Part shown: piece after piece, positions 33,777 through 41,687 of the stretch
Layout of the letters: each line of letters starts with the position of its first letter
How positions within the stretch are numbered: position 1 is the first letter of the stretch
Assembly: GCA_947384015.1 (NCBI GenBank)
Contig: CANDFN010000001.1
Location: forward strand, 1-41,687
DNA length: 41,687 nt
DNA from: an uncultured Clostridia bacterium
Lineage (GTDB): Bacteria; Bacillota; Clostridia; Christensenellales; UBA1242
Direction of reading: 5' to 3'
Notes under the pieces: generated by a model
Told to the model about the DNA's origin: nothing
The model's database searches: none
What the model saw: the letters and a program-made list of their open reading frames with translations, nothing else
Translations under genes and position numbers: made by a program

Positions 33777-36131
33777 TTATTTCCAGCGCCAGTTTTCAAT
33801 TTCTGGCAAATCTACACCATATTCTTCAATAAATTCTTTATGATGCTCTAATTTTAATTTGATTATTTTGCCTATTTTCTTTTTATCATTTTCTGGTATG
33901 TTTATATATTTTAAAACCTTTTCAAGCAAATGAAAGCGGTCCGCTTTATTTTTTACACGCATATCAAAAGAGGTTGTAATTGTTCCTTCCTCTAAATAAC
34001 CAGAAACGTGTAATTCTTGATTTTTGCGTTTATAAGCAAGCATATGAATTAGCTGTGGATATCCGTGGAAATTAAATATTATAGGTTTATCTGTTGTAAA
34101 TAATTTATCATATTCTTTGTCTGATAATCCATGTGGGTGAGCATAATCTGGCACCATCTTCATTAAGTCTACAACATTTACAAAGCGAACATTTAAATTT
34201 GGTATATATTGTTTTATAAGTGTTACGGTAGCCAAACTCTCTATTGTTGCAGTATCTCCGCAAGATGCAATTACTATATCTGGGTTAGTTGTATCTCCAA
34301 CGCCTGCCCATTTCCATTCGCTTATACCTTTAGCACAATGCTTTTTTGCATCTGCCATATTTAACCATTGATAAGAAGGGTGTTTAGAAGCAACAATTAC
34401 ATTTACATAGTTTTTACTTTTTGCGCAATGGTCATAGCAAGATAGTAGGCAGTTTGCATCTGCTGGAAGATATATTCTAACAACATCAGCATTCTTGTTT
34501 ACAATATGGTCTAAAAAGCCTGGGTCTTGGTGGGTAAAACCATTATGGTCTTGTTGCCAAACATTACTTGTTAATATTAGGTTAAGCGATGATATTGGTT
34601 GTCTCCAATTAATCTCGTTACAAACTTTTAGCCATTTCGCGTGCTGTGCAACCATGCTATCTACAACACGAATAAAAGCCTCGTAACTGTTAAACATTCC
34701 ATGCCTACCAGTTAAAAGATAACCCTCCAACAATCCTTCACACAAATGCTCTGAAAGATAAGAATCCATAATTCTGCCGTCTATAGATAACTTATCATCA
34801 TAAGGTAAAGTTTTTGCATTAAAGGCTCTGTTTTCTACTTCAAAAGCCTTGTATAAGCGGTTACTCATTGCTTCGTCTGGGCTAAAAATGCGGTAGTTTT
34901 TATTCTTTTTATTTAGACTAAATAGATCGCGAATATAACCACTTAGTTCCAACATGTCTTGAGTTTTGATAGTTCCATGACCACGGAACTTAACTGCATA
35001 ATCATCTATGTTTGGAGTTATTAATTCTTTTAACAATTTTCCACCGTTTGCATATGGGCTAGCAGTCATGCGTTTGTCGCCTTTTGGAACAACAGACAAA
35101 TACTCTTTTTTAAGTTTGTAGTCTTTATCAAAAAGTTCATCTGGCTTATAACTTAAAAGCCAATCTTTAAGCAATTTTAGATGATTTTCTTTGCTCATAG
35201 AAATAGGAATTTGATGCGCCTTAAAATAATCTTCAATCTTTACGCCATCAACCTCTTTTGGACCAGTCCAGCCCTTTGGTGTGCGCAAAATAATCATTGG
35301 TATTGGTGCACGTTCACATCCTTTATTTAAGCGAGCTTTTGTTTGAATTTCTTTTATTTGTTCAATACACTTATCCATAGCTTCCGCCATAAGCACATGC
35401 ATTTTTTGAGGGTCGTTACCTTCTACAAAATAAGGAGTGTAGCCATAACCTTCAAACAACTTTTTTAATTCAGTTTTGCTAATACGTGCAAGAACTGTGG
35501 GGTTGTTAATTTTATAACCATTAAGATGAAGAATAGGTAACACAGCACCATCTCTTGATGGGTCTATAAATTTATTTGCATGCCAAGAAGTTGCAAGCGG
35601 TCCTGTTTCAGCTTCTCCATCACCAACAACAGTTACTGCAATTAACTTTGGATTGTCTAACACTGCACCATATGCGTGGGCGAGAGAGTATCCTAATTCG
35701 CCACCTTCATGTAATGAGCCTGGAGTTTCTGGCACAGCATGAGAGCCAATTCCGCCTGGGAAAGAGAATTGTTTACATAATCTTTTCATTCCTTCTCTAT
35801 CTTGAGAAATAGTTGGGTAGTATTCGCTGTAAACACCTTCTAAATAACTGTTGGCAGTTAAAAAGTTACCGCCATGTCCTGGGCCCGAAATAAAAATCAT
35901 ATCGCAATTATATTTGTTTATAACTCTGTTACAGTGCGCATACACAAAGTTTTGTCCAGGCACAGTTCCCCAGTGTCCAACTAACTTTTTCTTAATATCT
36001 TCAGCACACAATTCATGGTCACGTAACAGTGGATTATCTAATAAATAAAGTTGTGCTGCTGATAGATAATTTGCAGCCCTCCAATATCCATCTAATTTAT
36101 TTAAATATTCTGTTGTTGAAAATTTATCCAT
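33777..36131 (-). CDS. xfp: Xylulose-5-phosphate/fructose-6-phosphate phosphoketolase
   Basis: 784 aa. N-terminal YWRAANYLSAAQLYL, GHWGT.PG, EGGELGY and the thiamine-diphosphate motif GDGEAETG, all characteristic of the XFP family. Confidence 0.95.
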   Translation of the reverse strand: MDKFSTTEYLNKLDGYWRAANYLSAAQLYLLDNPLLRDHELCAEDIKKKLVGHWGTVPGQNFVYAHCNRVINKYNCDMIFISGPGHGGNFLTANSYLEGVYSEYYPTISQDREGMKRLCKQFSFPGGIGSHAVPETPGSLHEGGELGYSLAHAYGAVLDNPKLIAVTVVGDGEAETGPLATSWHANKFIDPSRDGAVLPILHLNGYKINNPTVLARISKTELKKLFEGYGYTPYFVEGNDPQKMHVLMAEAMDKCIEQIKEIQTKARLNKGCERAPIPMIILRTPKGWTGPKEVDGVKIEDYFKAHQIPISMSKENHLKLLKDWLLSYKPDELFDKDYKLKKEYLSVVPKGDKRMTASPYANGGKLLKELITPNIDDYAVKFRGHGTIKTQDMLELSGYIRDLFSLNKKNKNYRIFSPDEAMSNRLYKAFEVENRAFNAKTLPYDDKLSIDGRIMDSYLSEHLCEGLLEGYLLTGRHGMFNSYEAFIRVVDSMVAQHAKWLKVCNEINWRQPISSLNLILTSNVWQQDHNGFTHQDPGFLDHIVNKNADVVRIYLPADANCLLSCYDHCAKSKNYVNVIVASKHPSYQWLNMADAKKHCAKGISEWKWAGVGDTTNPDIVIASCGDTATIESLATVTLIKQYIPNLNVRFVNVVDLMKMVPDYAHPHGLSDKEYDKLFTTDKPIIFNFHGYPQLIHMLAYKRKNQELHVSGYLEEGTITTSFDMRVKNKADRFHLLEKVLKYINIPENDKKKIGKIIKLKLEHHKEFIEEYGVDLPEIENWRWK

Positions 36132-36353
36132 ATTTACCCTCTCTTTTATCTTTCCCTTTGATTTTTATATTTATTATTAAGCCTAAGTTTTAAGGTTAAG
36201 TTTTATGTAAGTTTACACATGCAACAAAATTTTACCTTTAAAAATATTATATCATATTGTTAAAATTTTTGTATCAATTTTATAACAAAAAAACACCCTT
36301 ATTAATAATTAATAAAAGTGTAAGTATGTTGGGAATTATTGTTGTAAATCCTA

Positions 36354-36797
36354 TTATTTTATTAAATCCCATCTATTAAGAAATAGATCATTATAATCAT
36401 TAAACTTCCTCATAGGATTATCTTGATGAATATAACCTTTTCTACCTGGAGTATTGAGCCATTCTTTGTGTCCGTTTGTAATAGCTTCCGCAACAATGGC
36501 GCTTGGAACTATATGGTATTCTGGCGAACTCAGTCCATTCATGCTAACAAAAACATAAAATATATTAAGATTATTTATTGTCTCATTCTTTTTTGATAAA
36601 GTCCATTCTTTTTTGTTTAAATGTGTAGTTTTAACTTGAATTGCAAAAATAGATTTTGTTTTTCTGTTTAAAGCCAAGATATCAAATAATTCCGTATTTG
36701 ACATAGGTATAGCAACACTAAAACCGTTTCTTTCTAGTTCTCCAGCAACAAAATATCCACCCGCATTTCCAACACTAATATTATTAACTTTTTTCAT
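36354..36797 (-). CDS. Small stand-alone PD-(D/E)xK-like (Hjc/restriction-endonuclease-fold) protein
   Basis: 147 aa. GNAGGYFVAGELERNGFSV...ELFDILAL...FAIQVKTT fits the alpha-beta-beta-beta core with D...Q-V-K in place of D...E-x-K. Confidence 0.45.
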   Translation of the reverse strand: MKKVNNISVGNAGGYFVAGELERNGFSVAIPMSNTELFDILALNRKTKSIFAIQVKTTHLNKKEWTLSKKNETINNLNIFYVFVSMNGLSSPEYHIVPSAIVAEAITNGHKEWLNTPGRKGYIHQDNPMRKFNDYNDLFLNRWDLIK

Positions 36798-36875
36798 TTG
36801 AAATCCTTTTTTACTATAAAATAAATATTTAAAAATCCAACAGAGACGTTCTTATTGTAAACATTTGTGATAAAT

Positions 36876-37253
36876 CTACCTTCTTTCTTTTATCTTAGAC
36901 CATATCATAAGTATAACAATAATTAAAAAGAAACCACCTAAACCCACGCCCATTAAAACAAAGCCAATTATTTGTGTTGTATGTAAAACTAAATATTTAC
37001 CAATATTTGCAAGTAAAATTCCAACAAAACCTAAAACAAAAGTAGCAACAAGTGGTAAAAATATTGCAAGTATTGTAGTTTTATCTTTGCGCGAAGCTTG
37101 TTTGTAAGATTTTTTATAATCGTTAAAAATGTCTACAACAGCATTTATTGCATCACGTTTTGTAATCTCTTCATAATCATCTTCTATTGATTGTTCTACA
37201 TTGTCTTTTTTATTATTGTTCACATTTCTTCCTTTATTTGTCTTATATAACAA
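36876..37253 (-). CDS. Small membrane protein (charged N-terminal region plus two C-terminal TM helices)
   Basis: The ORF-track start is TTG 37253. The alternative GTG 37223 has an AGGAAG RBS. No motif recognised. Confidence 0.4.
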   Translation of the reverse strand: MLYKTNKGRNVNNNKKDNVEQSIEDDYEEITKRDAINAVVDIFNDYKKSYKQASRKDKTTILAIFLPLVATFVLGFVGILLANIGKYLVLHTTQIIGFVLMGVGLGGFFLIIVILMIWSKIKERR

Positions 37254-37365
37254 AGTTTTTTTACATTAATTTGTGTCTTTTAAGAAAACCATCTCTTTAT
37301 TTTTTCTTTAAACTTTAGCAAAAAATTTTAATTGTATTGGCGGAGCAAGTGTAACCTAAATCGAA

Positions 37366-38376
37366 TTAGATTCTATCTCCATAAGGCAATGATTTTATAT
37401 AGTTTTCTATATAGTCCCAATCTGGGTTATTATTTTTTGTAGGCAATTTTATTATAGTTGATTTTATTAAATCCATTTTGAACGCTCTTCCATAACTGTA
37501 TCTATATCTTTCTCTTTCTAAGATAGACTTTAAAAATAAAGCAGTGTATTTATTTATCCATTTCGCCCTACATACAACTATATGGTCTCCTGCAACAAAT
37601 TTATTTGGTTGATAATAAATTGTTGATGTAGTGTCGCCAATTATAATCGCATTTCCTTTTTCTATACCTGAAATATCCTTTTCGTTAACATAACAATCAC
37701 AGCCATTGTTTGTGTCTGTTCTTGTAATAAATTCAATCTTTTCAGAACCAAAGTGTTCGAAATTTTCTATATCATTTTTCACATGAGCTTTAGCTTTATA
37801 AATATGCTCAAATAATGAACCTAATTTATATTCTTTCCAATTTTTCGATTCAAGAATAGGCAATTTACTCTTTATATTATTTTTTGTCGTAATTGACTTA
37901 TAATTTAGTGACTTCATATAATCTTCCATAAATTGCCAATCTGGCTCATTATTTTCTGTCACAGGTAATTTGATAGCCATTCTTGTTATTTCGTTACTAT
38001 ACACCGCACGACCATAAGAATATTTAAATCTTTCTTTGTTTATTAAAGTAACAATAAATAAGGCAATCAAATTAGTCATTTTAAATTTAGGTGTTAGTAT
38101 ATTTACTCTACCATGACTAACGCTATAAAACTCTTGATACTGATAGAAAGCATTACAAAACATATCAACAGTTATTTTGTTTTTATCAAAAATTTGAGCC
38201 TTTCCATCTCCAGCTTGAGATATATAAGCAACAATACCATTGTCAGTTTGGCCAGAAGACACTAAAGGTATATATCCATCGTCACATTCATCTACCTTCA
38301 AATCTCCTGAAGATAATGATATTTCAAATAAAGCACCGAGCATAAACTCTTGCCATTTTTCAACTTTAAGATTCAT
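37366..38376 (-). CDS. Restriction-modification specificity subunit (HsdS/BcgIB-like, two target-recognition domains)
   Basis: 336 aa. Two repeats each begin W(Q/K)E(F/Y).LG.LFE and end in a conserved spacer (YSYGRA...KLP...N.PDW.(F/Y).E.Y.KSL). Overlaps the upstream methylase gene by 11 nt. Confidence 0.85.
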   Translation of the reverse strand: MNLKVEKWQEFMLGALFEISLSSGDLKVDECDDGYIPLVSSGQTDNGIVAYISQAGDGKAQIFDKNKITVDMFCNAFYQYQEFYSVSHGRVNILTPKFKMTNLIALFIVTLINKERFKYSYGRAVYSNEITRMAIKLPVTENNEPDWQFMEDYMKSLNYKSITTKNNIKSKLPILESKNWKEYKLGSLFEHIYKAKAHVKNDIENFEHFGSEKIEFITRTDTNNGCDCYVNEKDISGIEKGNAIIIGDTTSTIYYQPNKFVAGDHIVVCRAKWINKYTALFLKSILERERYRYSYGRAFKMDLIKSTIIKLPTKNNNPDWDYIENYIKSLPYGDRI

Positions 38377-40198
38377 AAACTTTTCCTTCCTTTACAAGAT
38401 AGGCGAGATAATCATTGATTGTTTGCTGAAAGTCATTTTCATTCAAAGTAGAATAATCTGTCTTCATATAGGCTTCACAAAGCCATTCATCACTTCCACT
38501 AACTTTATGTGTGGCAGATAATCCATCTACTGATTTTCTAGTTCTATATAACTCTATCCATTGATTTTCAATCTCTACCCAACGACTGTTTCCATTAGTA
38601 TTGACTTGCTCAACTCTACCAAGATTCTTTTTCTTTTTAAAGCCATCATCTTTGTAATAACCAAAGAATGTGTCGGGATTTGTTATATCCGAGTGTTTTT
38701 TGCCAACCTTAAAGACCATACAACAAGCAGATGCAGATGCACCTGGATAAAAGACTTCATTTGGTAAAGTGAATACTGCATCCAAAGTATTTTCTTTTAA
38801 TATTTCACTTTTTATGTCTGAAATTTCTTTACTTGTGCCAATAGCACAAGAAACAGGTAATAGCACTGCTAATATAGCAGGCTGATTAATAGAATTTAAA
38901 ATATCAGAAATATATTTCACAAAGTAAAAACCTTTAGTTGGATCTTCTTTTTTATCTTTTTTCCAAGTTCTTGTAAATCTATCTGGCATTTGGTTTCTTT
39001 GTGCGTTATATGGAGGATTCATTAGAATCACATTTGGTTTATTTCTTATTATCCAATCTTTATAATCAAAACAACTTCCACATACGATATGGGAATTTCC
39101 ATCACTATGAATAAGCATATTTGTAGCAGCAAGGCCGTAAACATCTTCATCAAATTCTATTCCGAAAATTTGTTGTCTTTTTATCGCCAATTGCTCTTTT
39201 TCGGTAGAGCAATCATCTAATGCTTGGGTCATTGCTCTAACTAGAAAAGATCCACTACCACAACAAGGATCTAGAACGACTGAGTGTTTATTTACGCCTG
39301 AAATTTTTGCCATAAAATCAGTTATATGATCAGGCGTAAATGCTTGATTTTTATCAGCCTTTCCAACATATTTGTTAAATGTTACAAAAAATAAGTTTAA
39401 TAAATCTTGCCCAGCTGTTGTTTTATCATTGATATAAGGCAAAATATTTTCTTCTATGAAACTTAATATCTCTCTAAAATCTGCAACCTTTAGGGATCTG
39501 ATGACTTGATTTTTAAGGATTCTATCATCAAGCAAACCCAATTTTTTTGCTTTCTCTAAATCTCCATTTTGATTAAACAATTCTTCAAGAGTATCTTTAA
39601 TCGCAGCTCTTATTTGTGAGTTTGTAAGTGAAACACTTTTATATTCTAAACCATTTTTTAAAGCTAATAAACAAGTTCCAACAAATTGACTTCTTAATTT
39701 TTCTTTTACACCATGCTTGTGTAACAACTCATTAAGTTTATATGTGTTTGACATTACTTTTTCTTTATTGTTGATTTTAGTTGTGTAAAAATCAATATAT
39801 TCATCAATTGTTCTTAAAGAATTTTCATTTGGCATAAAGTCACTATCTGAAACAACACCTCTCCAAACCATAATTTTATCGTTTGCTGTATTGGCTAAAA
39901 TTGCAACAATTTTATTTTTACTAATTTGTTTTTCATATTCTACATATGCAGACAATTGTTCTTTTGCCGATTCTAAATCATTGCTAAAATCAACTTTAGT
40001 TTCCACTAAAATAGCCACATTATCTTTAACAAATTTAATATCAAGTTTTTCAAACTTTCTACCATTTTTAGAACTAACTATAGGCACAAATTGTAATGAT
40101 TGGTTCTTAAACTCTTTAGGATAACTAAATTCATCATTTTCAATATTGCTAACCAAATAATCACTACCTATTGTTGATATAATATCATTTCTTTTCAT
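38366..40198 (-). CDS. Fused PD-(D/E)xK nuclease-like N-terminal domain plus gamma-class N6-adenine DNA methyltransferase (BcgIA-like type IIB/IIG RM protein)
   Basis: 610 aa. N-terminal LDIKFV...AILVETKV...QLSAYVEY...ILANTANDKIMVW (HSDR_N-like nuclease core). MTase motifs: X FTPDHITDFM, I VLDPCCGSGSFLV, IV LMNPPYN. Confidence 0.85.
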   Translation of the reverse strand: MKRNDIISTIGSDYLVSNIENDEFSYPKEFKNQSLQFVPIVSSKNGRKFEKLDIKFVKDNVAILVETKVDFSNDLESAKEQLSAYVEYEKQISKNKIVAILANTANDKIMVWRGVVSDSDFMPNENSLRTIDEYIDFYTTKINNKEKVMSNTYKLNELLHKHGVKEKLRSQFVGTCLLALKNGLEYKSVSLTNSQIRAAIKDTLEELFNQNGDLEKAKKLGLLDDRILKNQVIRSLKVADFREILSFIEENILPYINDKTTAGQDLLNLFFVTFNKYVGKADKNQAFTPDHITDFMAKISGVNKHSVVLDPCCGSGSFLVRAMTQALDDCSTEKEQLAIKRQQIFGIEFDEDVYGLAATNMLIHSDGNSHIVCGSCFDYKDWIIRNKPNVILMNPPYNAQRNQMPDRFTRTWKKDKKEDPTKGFYFVKYISDILNSINQPAILAVLLPVSCAIGTSKEISDIKSEILKENTLDAVFTLPNEVFYPGASASACCMVFKVGKKHSDITNPDTFFGYYKDDGFKKKKNLGRVEQVNTNGNSRWVEIENQWIELYRTRKSVDGLSATHKVSGSDEWLCEAYMKTDYSTLNENDFQQTINDYLAYLVKEGKVYES

Positions 40199-40397
40199 TA
40201 TTTTTCTCCTTTTTAATCGTGGTTTTCTTATTTATATTCTTTAATTTAAGACTTATATTTTTAGTGCTAGTCAATTTAATTTCATTGTCTTCTACAAAGA
40301 AAACAACATCATCCCCCTTATCAATTTCTAAAAGTTTTCTAACTTCTTTTGGGATTGTTATTTGGCATTTGTTTGACAATTTTGCTTGTTTTATCAT
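40185..40397 (-). CDS. AbrB/MazE/SpoVT-family small DNA-binding protein, first gene of the RM operon
   Basis: 70 aa. KCQITIPKEVRKLLEIDKGDDVVFFVEDNEIKL is a swapped-hairpin SpoVT-AbrB motif. Overlaps the RM gene start by 14 nt. GAGAGG RBS. Confidence 0.85.
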   Translation of the reverse strand: MIKQAKLSNKCQITIPKEVRKLLEIDKGDDVVFFVEDNEIKLTSTKNISLKLKNINKKTTIKKEKNNEKK

Positions 40398-40436
40398 CTA
40401 ATAAACCTCTCAAAAATTCTTTACTTTCTTTACTTT

Positions 40437-40465
40437 AGTATAGCAAAAAAATATATTTTTTGCAA
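40437..40465 (-). promoter_or_regulatory. Putative promoter of the abrB-like/RM operon (TTGCAA-N17-TATACT on the minus strand)
   Basis: TTGCAA at 40460-40465 and minus-strand TATACT at 40437-40442. A tandem 9-mer (AAAGTAAAG x2, 40419-40436) lies directly downstream. Confidence 0.45.
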
Positions 40466-40510
40466 ACATATTGAAAAAATTTTATAAAATTATTACAATT
40501 TGGCATTTAG

Positions 40511-40585
40511 GCGTGTGCTTGTATTTATACAAGTAATACACAAATTGCAACCCTAGCGTGTGCTTGTCTTGAAACAAGTGAACGC
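40511..40585. repeat. Two tandem imperfect palindromes sharing the 12-mer GCGTGTGCTTGT
   Basis: The 12-mer occurs at 40511-40522 and 40556-40567. Each copy is followed by a short loop and ACAAGT..AC(A/G)C, forming hairpins of about 30 nt. Confidence 0.7.
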
Positions 40586-40629: not shown

Positions 40630-40679
40630 TTTTTAGTCAAGGTTAAAGTGTATTGCTTTTCGCAAACCTTGACTAAAAA
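40630..40679. repeat. Perfect 15-bp inverted repeat with a 20-nt spacer
   Basis: TTTTTAGTCAAGGTT (40630-40644) and AACCTTGACTAAAAA (40665-40679). Confidence 0.85.
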
Positions 40680-40779: not shown

Positions 40780-41687
40780 ATGAATGAAACATATAAACAT
40801 CATTCGCTCACAAATAGTCCTGCAAGCAGTCCAGCTTGTTCGACTCATTCGTTTATGAAAACAGCAGTTATATACGCTAGATATAGCAGTGATAACCAAA
40901 CAGAACAATCTATCGAAGGACAATTAAGAGTCTGTGAAGAGTATGCACAGAAAAATAACATACTCATATTAGACACCTACATTGATAGGGCTATGACTGG
41001 CACAAATGATTTGCGGCCAGACTTTCAAAGAATGATTAAAGATTCTTCTAAGAAAGAATGACAACATATTATTGTTTATAAAATAGACAGATTTAGTAGA
41101 AACAAATATGAAACTGCCAAATACAAAAAAAATATTAAAAGACAATGGCGTTAAGTTATTGTCTGCTATGGAAAACATACCGGATACACCAGAAGGAATA
41201 ATATTAGAAAGTTTGCTTGAAGGAATGGCAGAATACTATTCAGCAGAATTAAGTCAAAAAGTAAAACGAGGAATGAATGAAACAAGACTTAAAGGAAACT
41301 TTACAGGTAGACATTTAATATATGGCTACACAAAAGAAAATCACAAACTATTGATAAATGAAGAACATGCCGAAGTTGTGAGATATATTTACAAACAATA
41401 TTCGCTCGGAACTTATGTAAAAGATATTATTGCAACTCTCACTGAAAATCATATTTACAATCACGGAAAACCATTTGCAAGAAATACAATCTATAACATA
41501 CTTAAAAACGAGAAGTATTTCGGAATTTATAGATTTAATGATGAAATTTTTGAAAATATGTATCCAGCAATCGTGCCAGCAGATATTTATTACAAAGTGC
41601 GAGATAAAATAAACTTAAACAAGTATGGTAAGAGAAGTGTTGAAGTCGTATATTTACTTAGAAATAAACTTAAATGTGGCTATTGTG
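40780..41687 (+). pseudogene. Large serine recombinase (resolvase catalytic domain plus recombinase domain plus zinc ribbon), disrupted by an in-frame TGA and a +1 frameshift; runs off the window end
   Basis: AVIYARYSSDNQ..SIEGQ (catalytic Ser motif), then TGA at 41059-41061. It continues in the same frame as QHIIVYKIDRFSRNKYETAKYKK, shifts frame at the A8 run 41125-41132, then reads LKDNGVKLLSAMENIPDTPEGIILESLLEGMAEYYSAELSQKVKRG...LKCGYC. Confidence 0.85.

Follow-up and report, generated by a model that had tools for sequence, protein, structure and literature searches.

Introduction

Controllers of restriction-modification (RM) systems are textbook helix-turn-helix (HTH) proteins. The present analysis concerns a 41,687-nt stretch of DNA from an uncultured Clostridia bacterium (hereafter the window), in which the first gene of an RM operon encodes a small AbrB-like protein and is followed by the genes of a BcgI-like nuclease-methylase and its specificity (S) subunit. 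Among the closest described regulators, C proteins are presented in a 2025 review as acting via HTH motifs (PMC12707154). They are lambda-cI-like HTH dimers that recognize inverted-repeat C-boxes located upstream of or over the -35 element, and activate before they repress (PMC12707154, PMC3874152). Two further regulators, HsdC of Mycoplasma gallisepticum (PMC5282649) and RptR of E. coli (PMC12255303), are small proteins encoded just before hsdM; they bind to direct repeats in the operon promoter and repress the RM operon as a whole. How Type I and fused-enzyme systems are regulated is in general just beginning to emerge, the 2025 work on RptR being an example (PMC12255303).

Our analysis makes it probable that the AbrB-like protein is a VapB-derived, non-HTH autorepressor of the RM cassette, predicted from its sequence and gene context to bind and repress the cassette's own promoter and, jointly with this, that the segment 40534–37335 constitutes a compact, horizontally mobile RM cassette. 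Below we describe the regulator gene, its promoter and the enzyme genes, and compare the locus with known systems.

The AbrB-Like Gene Is Coupled to RM Operons

The operon consists of three genes:

40185–40397, minus strand: abrB-like gene, open reading frame (ORF) of 70 aa
38366–40198, minus strand: RM gene (A subunit), ORF of 610 aa
37366–38376, minus strand: S gene (B, specificity subunit), ORF of 336 aa

The original prediction, made from the sequence without database searches, had placed these genes and two further ones on the minus strand, with overlaps of 14 and 11 nt and a set of protein motifs, and all of these features are real according to the ORF list and an alignment of 21 sequences. 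The abrB-like and RM genes overlap by exactly 14 nt (40185–40198) and the RM and S genes by exactly 11 nt (38366–38376). The Shine-Dalgarno (SD) sequence of the RM gene, AAGGAG, sits within the 3' end of abrB. By its upstream position and its 14-nt overlap with the nuclease-bearing gene, the abrB-like gene is placed as the genes of C proteins are. The matches obtained with Pfam, NCBIfam and PADLOC profiles agree with the domains proposed earlier for the AbrB-like, RM and S proteins.

The AbrB-like protein matches PF04014 (MazE/AbrB; E 2e-12, residues 4–46) and TIGR01439 (AbrB family; E 5e-11). Residues 4–46 make up the swapped-hairpin DNA-binding domain of the SpoVT/AbrB/MazE type, and the C-terminal tail comprises 25 residues and is Lys-rich, with 10 K/R versus 2 D/E. 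In the profile searches only AbrB/MazE-type families were matched and no HTH profile was, which bears out the initial description of the protein as a swapped hairpin rather than an HTH controller.

We found that the AbrB family is consistently linked with RM genes. All seven members that were looked up (58–100% identity) are encoded directly upstream of RM operons, five of them BcgI-like and two classical Type I hsdM-hsdS-hsdR. P0244, P0252 (79%), P0262 (65%) and P0263 (58%) precede genes for a 610–641-aa BcgI-like RM protein and an S subunit; P0244, identical to the AbrB-like protein over its first 63 residues, occurs on at least 199 contigs. The Type I hsdM-hsdS-hsdR operons are preceded by P0257 (84%) and P0260 (79%), and the family stands in front of hsdM-S-R in loci L100–L103 and L328–L329. 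At the junction between abrB and the first RM gene we observed overlaps of 14, 8 or 1 nt or a 1-nt gap, i.e., the genes are coupled or abutting in every case. The family alignment further indicates that the basic 25-residue tail is kept whether the partner of AbrB is BcgI-like or Type I. It had been considered that abrB might lie beside the RM genes only by coincidence; the survey of abrB-RM-S neighbourhoods revealed a conserved linkage, which, with all seven family members next to RM operons, excludes coincidental adjacency for the close family.

Promoter and Candidate Operator

Upstream of abrB we identified the following elements:

40437–40466, minus strand: promoter of the abrB-RM-S operon (consensus scan and direct sequence reading)
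40465–40460, minus strand: -35 element TTGCAA, followed by a 17-nt spacer
40445–40444 (TG) and 40442–40437 (TATACT), minus strand: extended -10 element TGcTATACT (consensus scan)
40418–40435, minus strand: candidate operator, tandem AAGTAAAGA AAGTAAAGA, starting 1 nt past the -10 hexamer
40411–40406, minus strand: ribosome-binding site (RBS) GAGAGG of abrB, downstream of the candidate operator

Nine independent types of AbrB-RM locus, with flanks that are otherwise unrelated, show -35, TGn and -10 elements at this same spacing. Their common layout is a TTGCAA-like -35, a 17-nt spacer, TGnTATACT or TATATT, then directly AAGTAAAGAAAGTAAAGA, the RBS and the ATG. The exact 18-mer formed by the two copies of AAGTAAAGA has a single occurrence in the whole window; among the loci compared it is present once in each of the 14 that bear AbrB and in none of the 91 others. 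It is also exact in L324 and L327, two loci picked by protein similarity (AbrB 65% and 58% identical), in which the flanking DNA is unrelated. The abrB genes show a dN/dS of 0.07–0.21 and synonymous differences of 0.55–0.90 per site, near saturation, while the operator retains all of its 18 positions with 0 changes.

The candidate operator spans the predicted transcription start. Repression is therefore expected, as a site that begins one base past the -10 hexamer covers the start of the transcript. We saw no inverted-repeat C-box upstream of or over the -35 element; the sole conserved site of this promoter is the direct repeat 3' of the -10.

The Regulator Slot in Sister Cassettes

For the neighbourhoods of the RM gene we used a set of 80 genome loci, in 72 of which the upstream region is readable. 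An AbrB gene occupies the slot before RM in none of these 72 loci. Small ribbon-helix-helix (RHH)-like genes coupled to the RM start are present in about 20 of them, and HTH genes in at least four, at least three of which are XRE-type (L039, L043, L068), joined by a winged-HTH gene in L033. The slot in front of the closest RM relative of the window, P0001 in L084 (92% identical), likewise overlaps RM by 14 nt and holds an RHH-like gene of 57 aa. The DNA of the window and that of L084 share the far-upstream element AAGCACACGCCTAAATGCCAAATT and the SD and start of RM, and the regulator gene and promoter between them are unrelated.

The RHH-like genes encode 57–61 aa and overlap the RM start by 4–14 nt. 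By a strict count, the promoter is covered by a pair of TGATATCA boxes in 12 of the RHH-like loci, some 130 nt before the RM start (L003, L011, L015, L017, L020, L023, L024, L036, L041, L044, L051 and L064); these palindromes lie over and just after the -10, and the variants GGTATCA or GATACCA are found in L084, L002 and L004. Since different DNA-binding folds, each with its own operator, fill the same coupled slot, the function of this slot appears to be transcriptional control.

Two side observations concern the same position. The RHH-like genes before BcgI-like RM genes seem to represent another class of RM controllers without HTH, and a more common one. In turn, about 10 of the 72 loci have upstream of RM a gene for a protein of ~298–305 aa, ending between 4 nt inside and 17 nt before the RM start (L006, L007, L009, L012, L013, L016, L029, L030 and L037, with fragments in L008, L010 and L069). 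Judging by the appearance of its sequence, it may be a toxin gene of the AbiEii/nucleotidyltransferase type.

The RM and S Proteins Form a BcgI-Like Type IIB Pair

The RM protein combines an N-terminal PD-(D/E)xK nuclease domain, a helical linker and a gamma-class N6-adenine methyltransferase, and it matches the N6_Mtase (E 7e-33) and PADLOC REase_MTase_IIG (E 2e-52) profiles. In the alignment of 21 homologues, D53 of LDIKF and E66-T67-K68 of ILVETKV are invariant; so are DPCCGSGSF and NPPY of the methyltransferase motifs DPCCGSGSFL (310–319) and NPPY (394–397). For BcgI, Glu53 of the PD...EXK motif was reported to be essential for cleavage (PMC3592470). With D53, E66 and K68 conserved throughout, the N-terminal domain does carry nuclease catalytic residues, as opposed to a protein that is a methylase only.

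The AlphaFold model of residues 1–120 (pLDDT 77–91) displays the alpha-beta-beta-beta-alpha-beta topology of the nuclease core, in which D53 leads into strand 54–58 and E66 and K68 end the next strand (61–68). The top fold match of the RM model in the Protein Data Bank (PDB) is the RM subunit of BsaXI (8w2p_A, E 6e-13), at low TM-scores (0.40 and 0.28). When the PDB was searched with the RM sequence, the matches were all Type I M subunits and BsaXI was not among them, which indicates that its kinship to the solved BsaXI enzyme is distant. The RM family pools more than 5,600 matches at E <= 1e-10, distributed among Bacillota, Bacteroidota, Actinomycetota, Fusobacteriota and Pseudomonadota, with one in Methanobrevibacter.

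The S protein contains two target recognition domains (TRDs), as seen from two stretches matching Methylase_S (E 2e-24) and from PADLOC Specificity_II (E 8.5e-26). A 60-nt direct repeat inside its gene (37381–37440 and 37900–37959) marks the two conserved spacer regions. The S gene lies directly 3' of the RM gene in 76 of the 80 genome loci, the contigs of the other four stopping right after RM, and the overlap of the two genes is usually 8 nt. Neither in the window nor in its source contigs did we find an HsdR, ResIII or helicase gene nearby, and no HsdR was seen in the 80 genome loci; in contrast, a helicase/translocase gene is present in the Type I loci L100–L103. The conserved catalytic residues, the nuclease-core topology and the top fold match, together with a two-TRD partner and no helicase gene nearby, uphold the assignment made in the original prediction: by sequence and model, RM plus S is a BcgI/BsaXI-like Type IIB system, with the enzyme activity predicted.

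Probable Toxin-Antitoxin Ancestry of the Regulator

Metagenome and viral collections were scanned with the 18-mer, and among the matches listed it is followed by an AbrB gene in five loci. These distant homologues have 68–105 aa and show 34–43% identity over the N-terminal domain. The AbrB start is located 20–40 nt downstream of the 18-mer in four of the loci and about 115 nt in L117, within the same -10/operator/RBS layout. In L149 and L197, the next, overlapping gene encodes a PIN_3 toxin, as confirmed with Pfam; the next gene of L117 is PIN-like as judged by its sequence, and the AbrB gene behind the 18-mer of L200 is apparently solitary. The tails of PIN-linked AbrB proteins comprise 43 residues and are acidic, as compared to the basic, 25-residue tails of the RM-linked ones.

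The pairing of AbrB with an unrelated toxin elsewhere, raised at the outset as a possible objection to the RM linkage, thus applies to distant homologues only (29–32% identity overall, 34–43% over the N-terminal domain) and not to the RM-linked family. Altogether, these data support that a VapB-type DNA-binding domain, along with its operator, was exapted as an RM controller.

The Cassette, Its Edges and Its Mobility

DNA homology of the window to L084, L002 and L104 starts repeatedly at 40534 and ends at 37335–37359, just past the S stop codon. Two features lie at or beyond the upstream edge:

40484–40534, minus strand: conserved non-coding element ACTTGTAT..ACAAGCACACGCCTAAATGCCAAATT, from alignments and BLAST breakpoints at the upstream edge of the cassette
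40780–41687, plus strand: pseudogene of a large serine recombinase, of which L095 has an intact counterpart (498 aa, 92% identity)

With L104, L084 and L101, BLAST homology repeatedly breaks off at 40534. The element (ACTTGTAT..ACAAGCACACGCCTAAATGCCA) is found upstream of the regulator in loci with AbrB or RHH genes and with BcgI-like or Type I enzymes. The window has a second copy at 40556–40579, and in L084 (646–705), L101 (4825–4885) and L102 the element forms an inverted pair. A perfect 15-bp inverted repeat lies nearby (40630–40644 and 40665–40679). Possible roles of the element are those of a recombination site, of an insulator or terminator, or of a region that controls the recombinase. 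Beyond it we found no convincing terminal inverted or direct repeats bounding the cassette, and no att sites were assignable.

The recombinase gene is intact (498–568 aa) in L095–L103, L324 and L328–L329. In the window it is disrupted by a 75-nt insertion with a hairpin (40780–40854) before the original ATG at 40855, a stop at W69 (41059–41061), a +1 frameshift at about 41125 and a further stop past the window end, and gene callers break it into 93 + 212 + 187 aa. With its recombinase dead, the cassette is therefore likely to be stranded here. "Large-serine-recombinase-borne mobile RM cassette" is used as a descriptive grouping and not as an established family, and the recombinase that defines it is not intact in the window. 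In some Type I versions, L101 and L102 (3041–3946), a REP_ORF2-G2P rolling-circle initiator gene is located between the serine recombinase and abrB, which hints at a plasmid-like or integrative-replicative origin of the platform.

The S gene bears marks of exchange. Between the window and L095–L099 the DNA is 98.7% identical over 40779–37605, a region that covers the intergenic DNA, abrB, RM and the first 770 nt of S. The homology to L095 ends inside S at 37605, and the S protein has 336 aa in the window versus 415 aa in L095. For the second TRD, the resemblance is to that of L001 (79% identity over 37365–37944), and beyond the breakpoint it is unrelated to L095 7794–8270. Since homology to the L095 cassette stops within S, TRD2 appears to have been exchanged, and the comparison indicates a mosaic S gene whose specificity was recently swapped through recombination within the conserved region at its centre.

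Genes Downstream of the Cassette

Two further genes follow S on the same strand, and the whole five-gene stretch has a low GC content (27%):

36876–37223, minus strand: two-TM gene with two predicted transmembrane (TM) helices, GTG start at 37223, 115 aa (preferred; the longest ORF is 36876–37253)
36354–36797, minus strand: small PD-(D/E)xK nuclease gene, ORF of 147 aa

Both gene callers and the RBS AAAGGAAG favour the GTG at 37223 over the longest ORF of the TM gene. In the 115-aa protein the N-terminal half is charged and two TM helices are predicted; its hydrophobic peaks at ~50–72 and ~85–108 agree with the two membrane segments proposed from the start. No significant match for it was found in Pfam, NCBIfam, PADLOC or PHROG, the Pfam and NCBIfam hits all being sub-threshold; there was one marginal viral match. 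The nuclease fold assigned earlier to the 147-aa protein was likewise recovered, in a confident model (pLDDT 86.5) whose top PDB folds are Hjc and the homing endonuclease I-Ssp6803I, both PD-(D/E)xK nucleases; PF11645 (PDDEXK_5) matched at E 1.3e-4, below the family threshold. This family comprises 311 matches of about 145 aa with invariant D39 and Q54-V-K56; at position 14, where nearly all members have Glu, the window copy has Gly.

Homologues of the 147-aa protein (L085–L094) are encoded after a MobL relaxase gene in conjugative elements, in an integrase/Mob_Pre mobilisable element and in a prophage replication module. Those examined often stand beside a gene with the HI_0787_N domain (PF27257) and never beside RM. 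The recurrent pair suggests an uncharacterised two-gene module, the window copy being without that partner.

In tblastn searches with the five proteins, covering more than 100 related loci, the TM and nuclease proteins matched nothing outside the contigs of the window itself; neither the 80 genome loci nor any of the other AbrB-RM loci (L095–L105, L324–L330) has a homologue. DNA homology to every related cassette ends about 10–30 nt past the S stop codon, and in the 98.7% identical cassette of L095–L099 a housekeeping aldehyde dehydrogenase gene follows directly. A scan revealed no terminator-like site between S and the TM and nuclease genes, and read-through transcription into them is conceivable. 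The proposal that all five genes act as one composite defence unit does not hold, as the last two are missing from all other related loci and lie outside the cassette homology. They are probably separate, horizontally acquired neighbours.

The phosphoketolase gene further downstream (33777–36131) has a strong-looking promoter of its own at 36245–36275 on the minus strand (TTGATA, 17 nt, TGaTATAAT) and is thus unlikely to rely on read-through from the island.

Proposed Mechanism and Alternative Explanations

In the mechanism that we propose, the A and B subunits would assemble as A2B, methylate a bipartite site and excise unmodified sites by two-sided cutting. A dimer or tetramer of the AbrB-like protein would bind the tandem AAGTAAAGA-AAGTAAAGA over the transcription start and thereby exert negative autoregulation on the abrB-RM-S transcript. 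Upon entry into a naive cell the promoter would fire freely, and the build-up of the regulator would then limit the nuclease-methylase, which is potentially toxic to the cell itself, to a low steady-state level. Coupled translation, by way of the 14-nt overlap and the SD within abrB, would tie the output of the enzyme to that of the regulator. Regulator and operator would originate from a VapB-type antitoxin module, in which the long acidic toxin-binding tail was replaced by the short basic one. The AbrB module would serve both BcgI-like and Type I operons. RHH-like or HTH proteins with operators of their own fill the same slot in sister cassettes, and the cassette usually travels next to the large serine recombinase.

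Several points weigh against this mechanism. For the most part, the AbrB-RM loci are closely related to one another and stem from gut metagenomes, so that they represent few independent evolutionary events. The 9-nt repeat is rich in A and low in complexity, and the 18-mer is present in more than 200 unrelated metagenomic and viral contigs: among the 217 matches listed in the scan, 212 are unrelated, including giant-virus contigs, and five have an adjacent AbrB gene. For both reasons the 18-mer alone is not diagnostic. The AbrB-PIN loci were retrieved via the operator, which makes the identity of their operators circular and leaves the co-occurrence of AbrB as the independent observation. In the sister upstream proteins, the RHH_1, Arc and HicB matches of the Pfam scans are all sub-threshold, and we infer the "RHH-like" label from these and from the sequence pattern. 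The full-length RM model has a mean pLDDT of 63.6, i.e., moderate confidence only. Lastly, in a fused nuclease-methylase the classical rationale of delaying R after M is inapplicable, and a benefit from dosage control is assumed.

Other explanations of the abrB gene were considered. One view is that abrB regulates the serine recombinase or is a solo antitoxin left behind; it would then play no role in RM expression, and the RM genes would simply have been inserted behind it. The derivation of the module from toxin-antitoxin (TA) loci, the divergent serine recombinase beside most AbrB-RM loci and the solitary-looking AbrB gene of L200 are in line with such a view, but strong purifying selection on abrB (dN/dS as given above) and the coupling to the first RM gene, kept in four junction forms, are at odds with it. 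Moreover, the operator belongs to the abrB/RM promoter and is ~250–350 nt away from the recombinase start, L104 and L327 keep abrB, operator and RM with no recombinase within the available DNA, and the window has an intact abrB next to a defunct recombinase gene. We therefore regard a leftover gene as unlikely. Very unlikely, in our view, is a true antitoxin that neutralises the RM enzyme by protein binding, which would make the locus a hybrid TA/RM addiction module. The fold and the top profiles do belong to antitoxin families (PF04014, PrlF; doc_partner below threshold), distant relatives with the same operator partner PIN toxins, and abrB is translationally coupled to RM. Yet the RM-linked proteins are devoid of the ~40-residue acidic C-terminal region and possess a short Lys-rich tail instead, and an 84%-identical protein with the same tail precedes HsdM, which is without the N-terminal domain common to BcgI-like A subunits. 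Partner-specific binding is unlikely, since nearly the same AbrB precedes both HsdM and BcgI-like A. The sister slots, moreover, hold unrelated folds with their own operators, DNA binding being the only property common to them. From the original wording, an unconventional controller or an antitoxin-like module, the controller is thus favoured by the RM linkage and the conserved operator, and of the antitoxin it is the ancestry that stands; neutralisation at the protein level probably does not, as the wiring looks transcriptional.

It is highly improbable that the TM and nuclease genes form the back-up or effector arm of abortive infection within a five-gene defence unit. The five genes share one strand with gaps of 142 and 78 nt after S and after the TM gene, no terminator-like site was found between them, their GC content is low throughout and the nuclease family is common on mobile elements; against this, neither gene recurs in the 80 genome loci or the other AbrB-RM loci, the cassette of L095–L099 is succeeded by aldehyde dehydrogenase with homology ending within ~30 nt of the S stop, relatives of the nuclease occur elsewhere with no RM or TM partner and often with an HI_0787_N gene, and the window copy has lost the nearly invariant E14 to Gly. 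Least probable of all is classical C-protein behaviour, in which the AbrB-like protein would activate at low and repress at high concentration and so delay the enzyme, by analogy with the PvuII, Esp1396I and AhdI controllers that are also encoded by the first operon gene (PMC12707154). Here, the single conserved site is located downstream of the -10 and not upstream of or over the -35 as C-box activation sites are, a good extended -10 is already there and makes an activator not obviously needed, and a delay of R versus M is impossible in this way for a nuclease and methylase that are one polypeptide. Negative autoregulation of the RM cassette by a VapB-derived protein hence remains the reading that we prefer.

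Significance

The locus offers a testable case of AbrB-fold control of an RM cassette, with regulator and operator taken from a VapBC-like module, and it supplies a defined 18-bp candidate operator and a 70-aa protein for direct experiments. One AbrB module would serve Type IIB and Type I systems, with RHH-like regulators in the same slot of sister cassettes. Such a case speaks for an exchange of regulatory parts between RM and TA systems and suggests possible cross-talk. The bystander status of the two downstream genes averts the false call of a new five-gene defence system.

Incompatibility or immunity groups are known for C proteins. It is possible, if rather doubtful, that the AbrB/operator module is a regulatory currency shared between TA loci and RM cassettes, with the regulator slot acting as a swappable establishment module. 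If this were true, a TA module already present in the host might or might not repress an RM cassette that arrives later, the reverse also being possible; incompatibility or immunity groups would span two classes of selfish and defence elements, and the AbrB/RHH/HTH slot would decide which hosts a mobile RM cassette can enter.

Comparison with Known Systems

Like the window, BcgI and BsaXI consist of an A gene for a nuclease and N6-adenine methyltransferase and a B gene for a two-TRD specificity subunit, with no translocase (PMC3592470, PMC11997821). They also share the N-terminal PD...ExK motif and the NPPY methylase motif, and the subunit sizes of the window are comparable with the PADLOC Type IIG (614 positions) and Specificity_II (341 positions) profiles. 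BcgI was set beside the locus by description, and the likeness is one of architecture and published motifs. A regulator gene upstream is a feature of the family studied here; in the available text of PMC3592470 and PMC11997821, it is not mentioned for BcgI or BsaXI.

With the C proteins (C.PvuII, C.AhdI, C.Esp1396I, C.Csp231I) the AbrB-like protein has in common that it is small and DNA-binding, is encoded by the first gene of a nuclease operon, is presumed to be autoregulatory and occupies a slot that is interchangeable between systems. In contrast to them, it would bind through an AbrB swapped hairpin to direct repeats in tandem 3' of the -10, and would be expected to repress only. HsdC and RptR resemble it in the position of the repressor gene immediately upstream of the operon, the more so as the AbrB family also precedes Type I hsdM-S-R; HsdC differs as a member of the C-protein family (PMC12707154) and RptR as an all-helical, HTH-like protein. 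In the available text of PMC5282649 and PMC12255303, neither is described as having an AbrB fold, RHH fold or TA-antitoxin origin or as serving a Type IIB system. Our literature search found no AbrB- or RHH-type RM controllers in the limited collection covered, where absence is no proof.

Among TA loci, Omega of omega-epsilon-zeta and PaaR of paaR-paaA-parE are likewise dedicated small repressors that act on repeats in their own promoters and strictly repress a toxin operon, being separate from the neutralising component (PMC3874152). They differ in their RHH fold, in a cargo that is a TA pair and not RM, and in the type of repeat. The VapB/MazE antitoxins share with the AbrB-like protein the N-terminal swapped hairpin (PF04014), the layout of -10, two copies of AAGTAAAGA and RBS (L149, L197), and the role of first gene in a coupled operon with a potentially toxic downstream product. 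They differ by an acidic C-terminal toxin-binding extension, which is absent from the RM-linked proteins; the latter have no PIN, MazF or Doc partner, are followed by a methylase-containing RM gene and show 29–43% identity to the PIN-linked ones. As judged from these comparisons, the AbrB-like protein would differ from the known RM controllers in its fold, in the logic of its operator and in its descent from a TA module.

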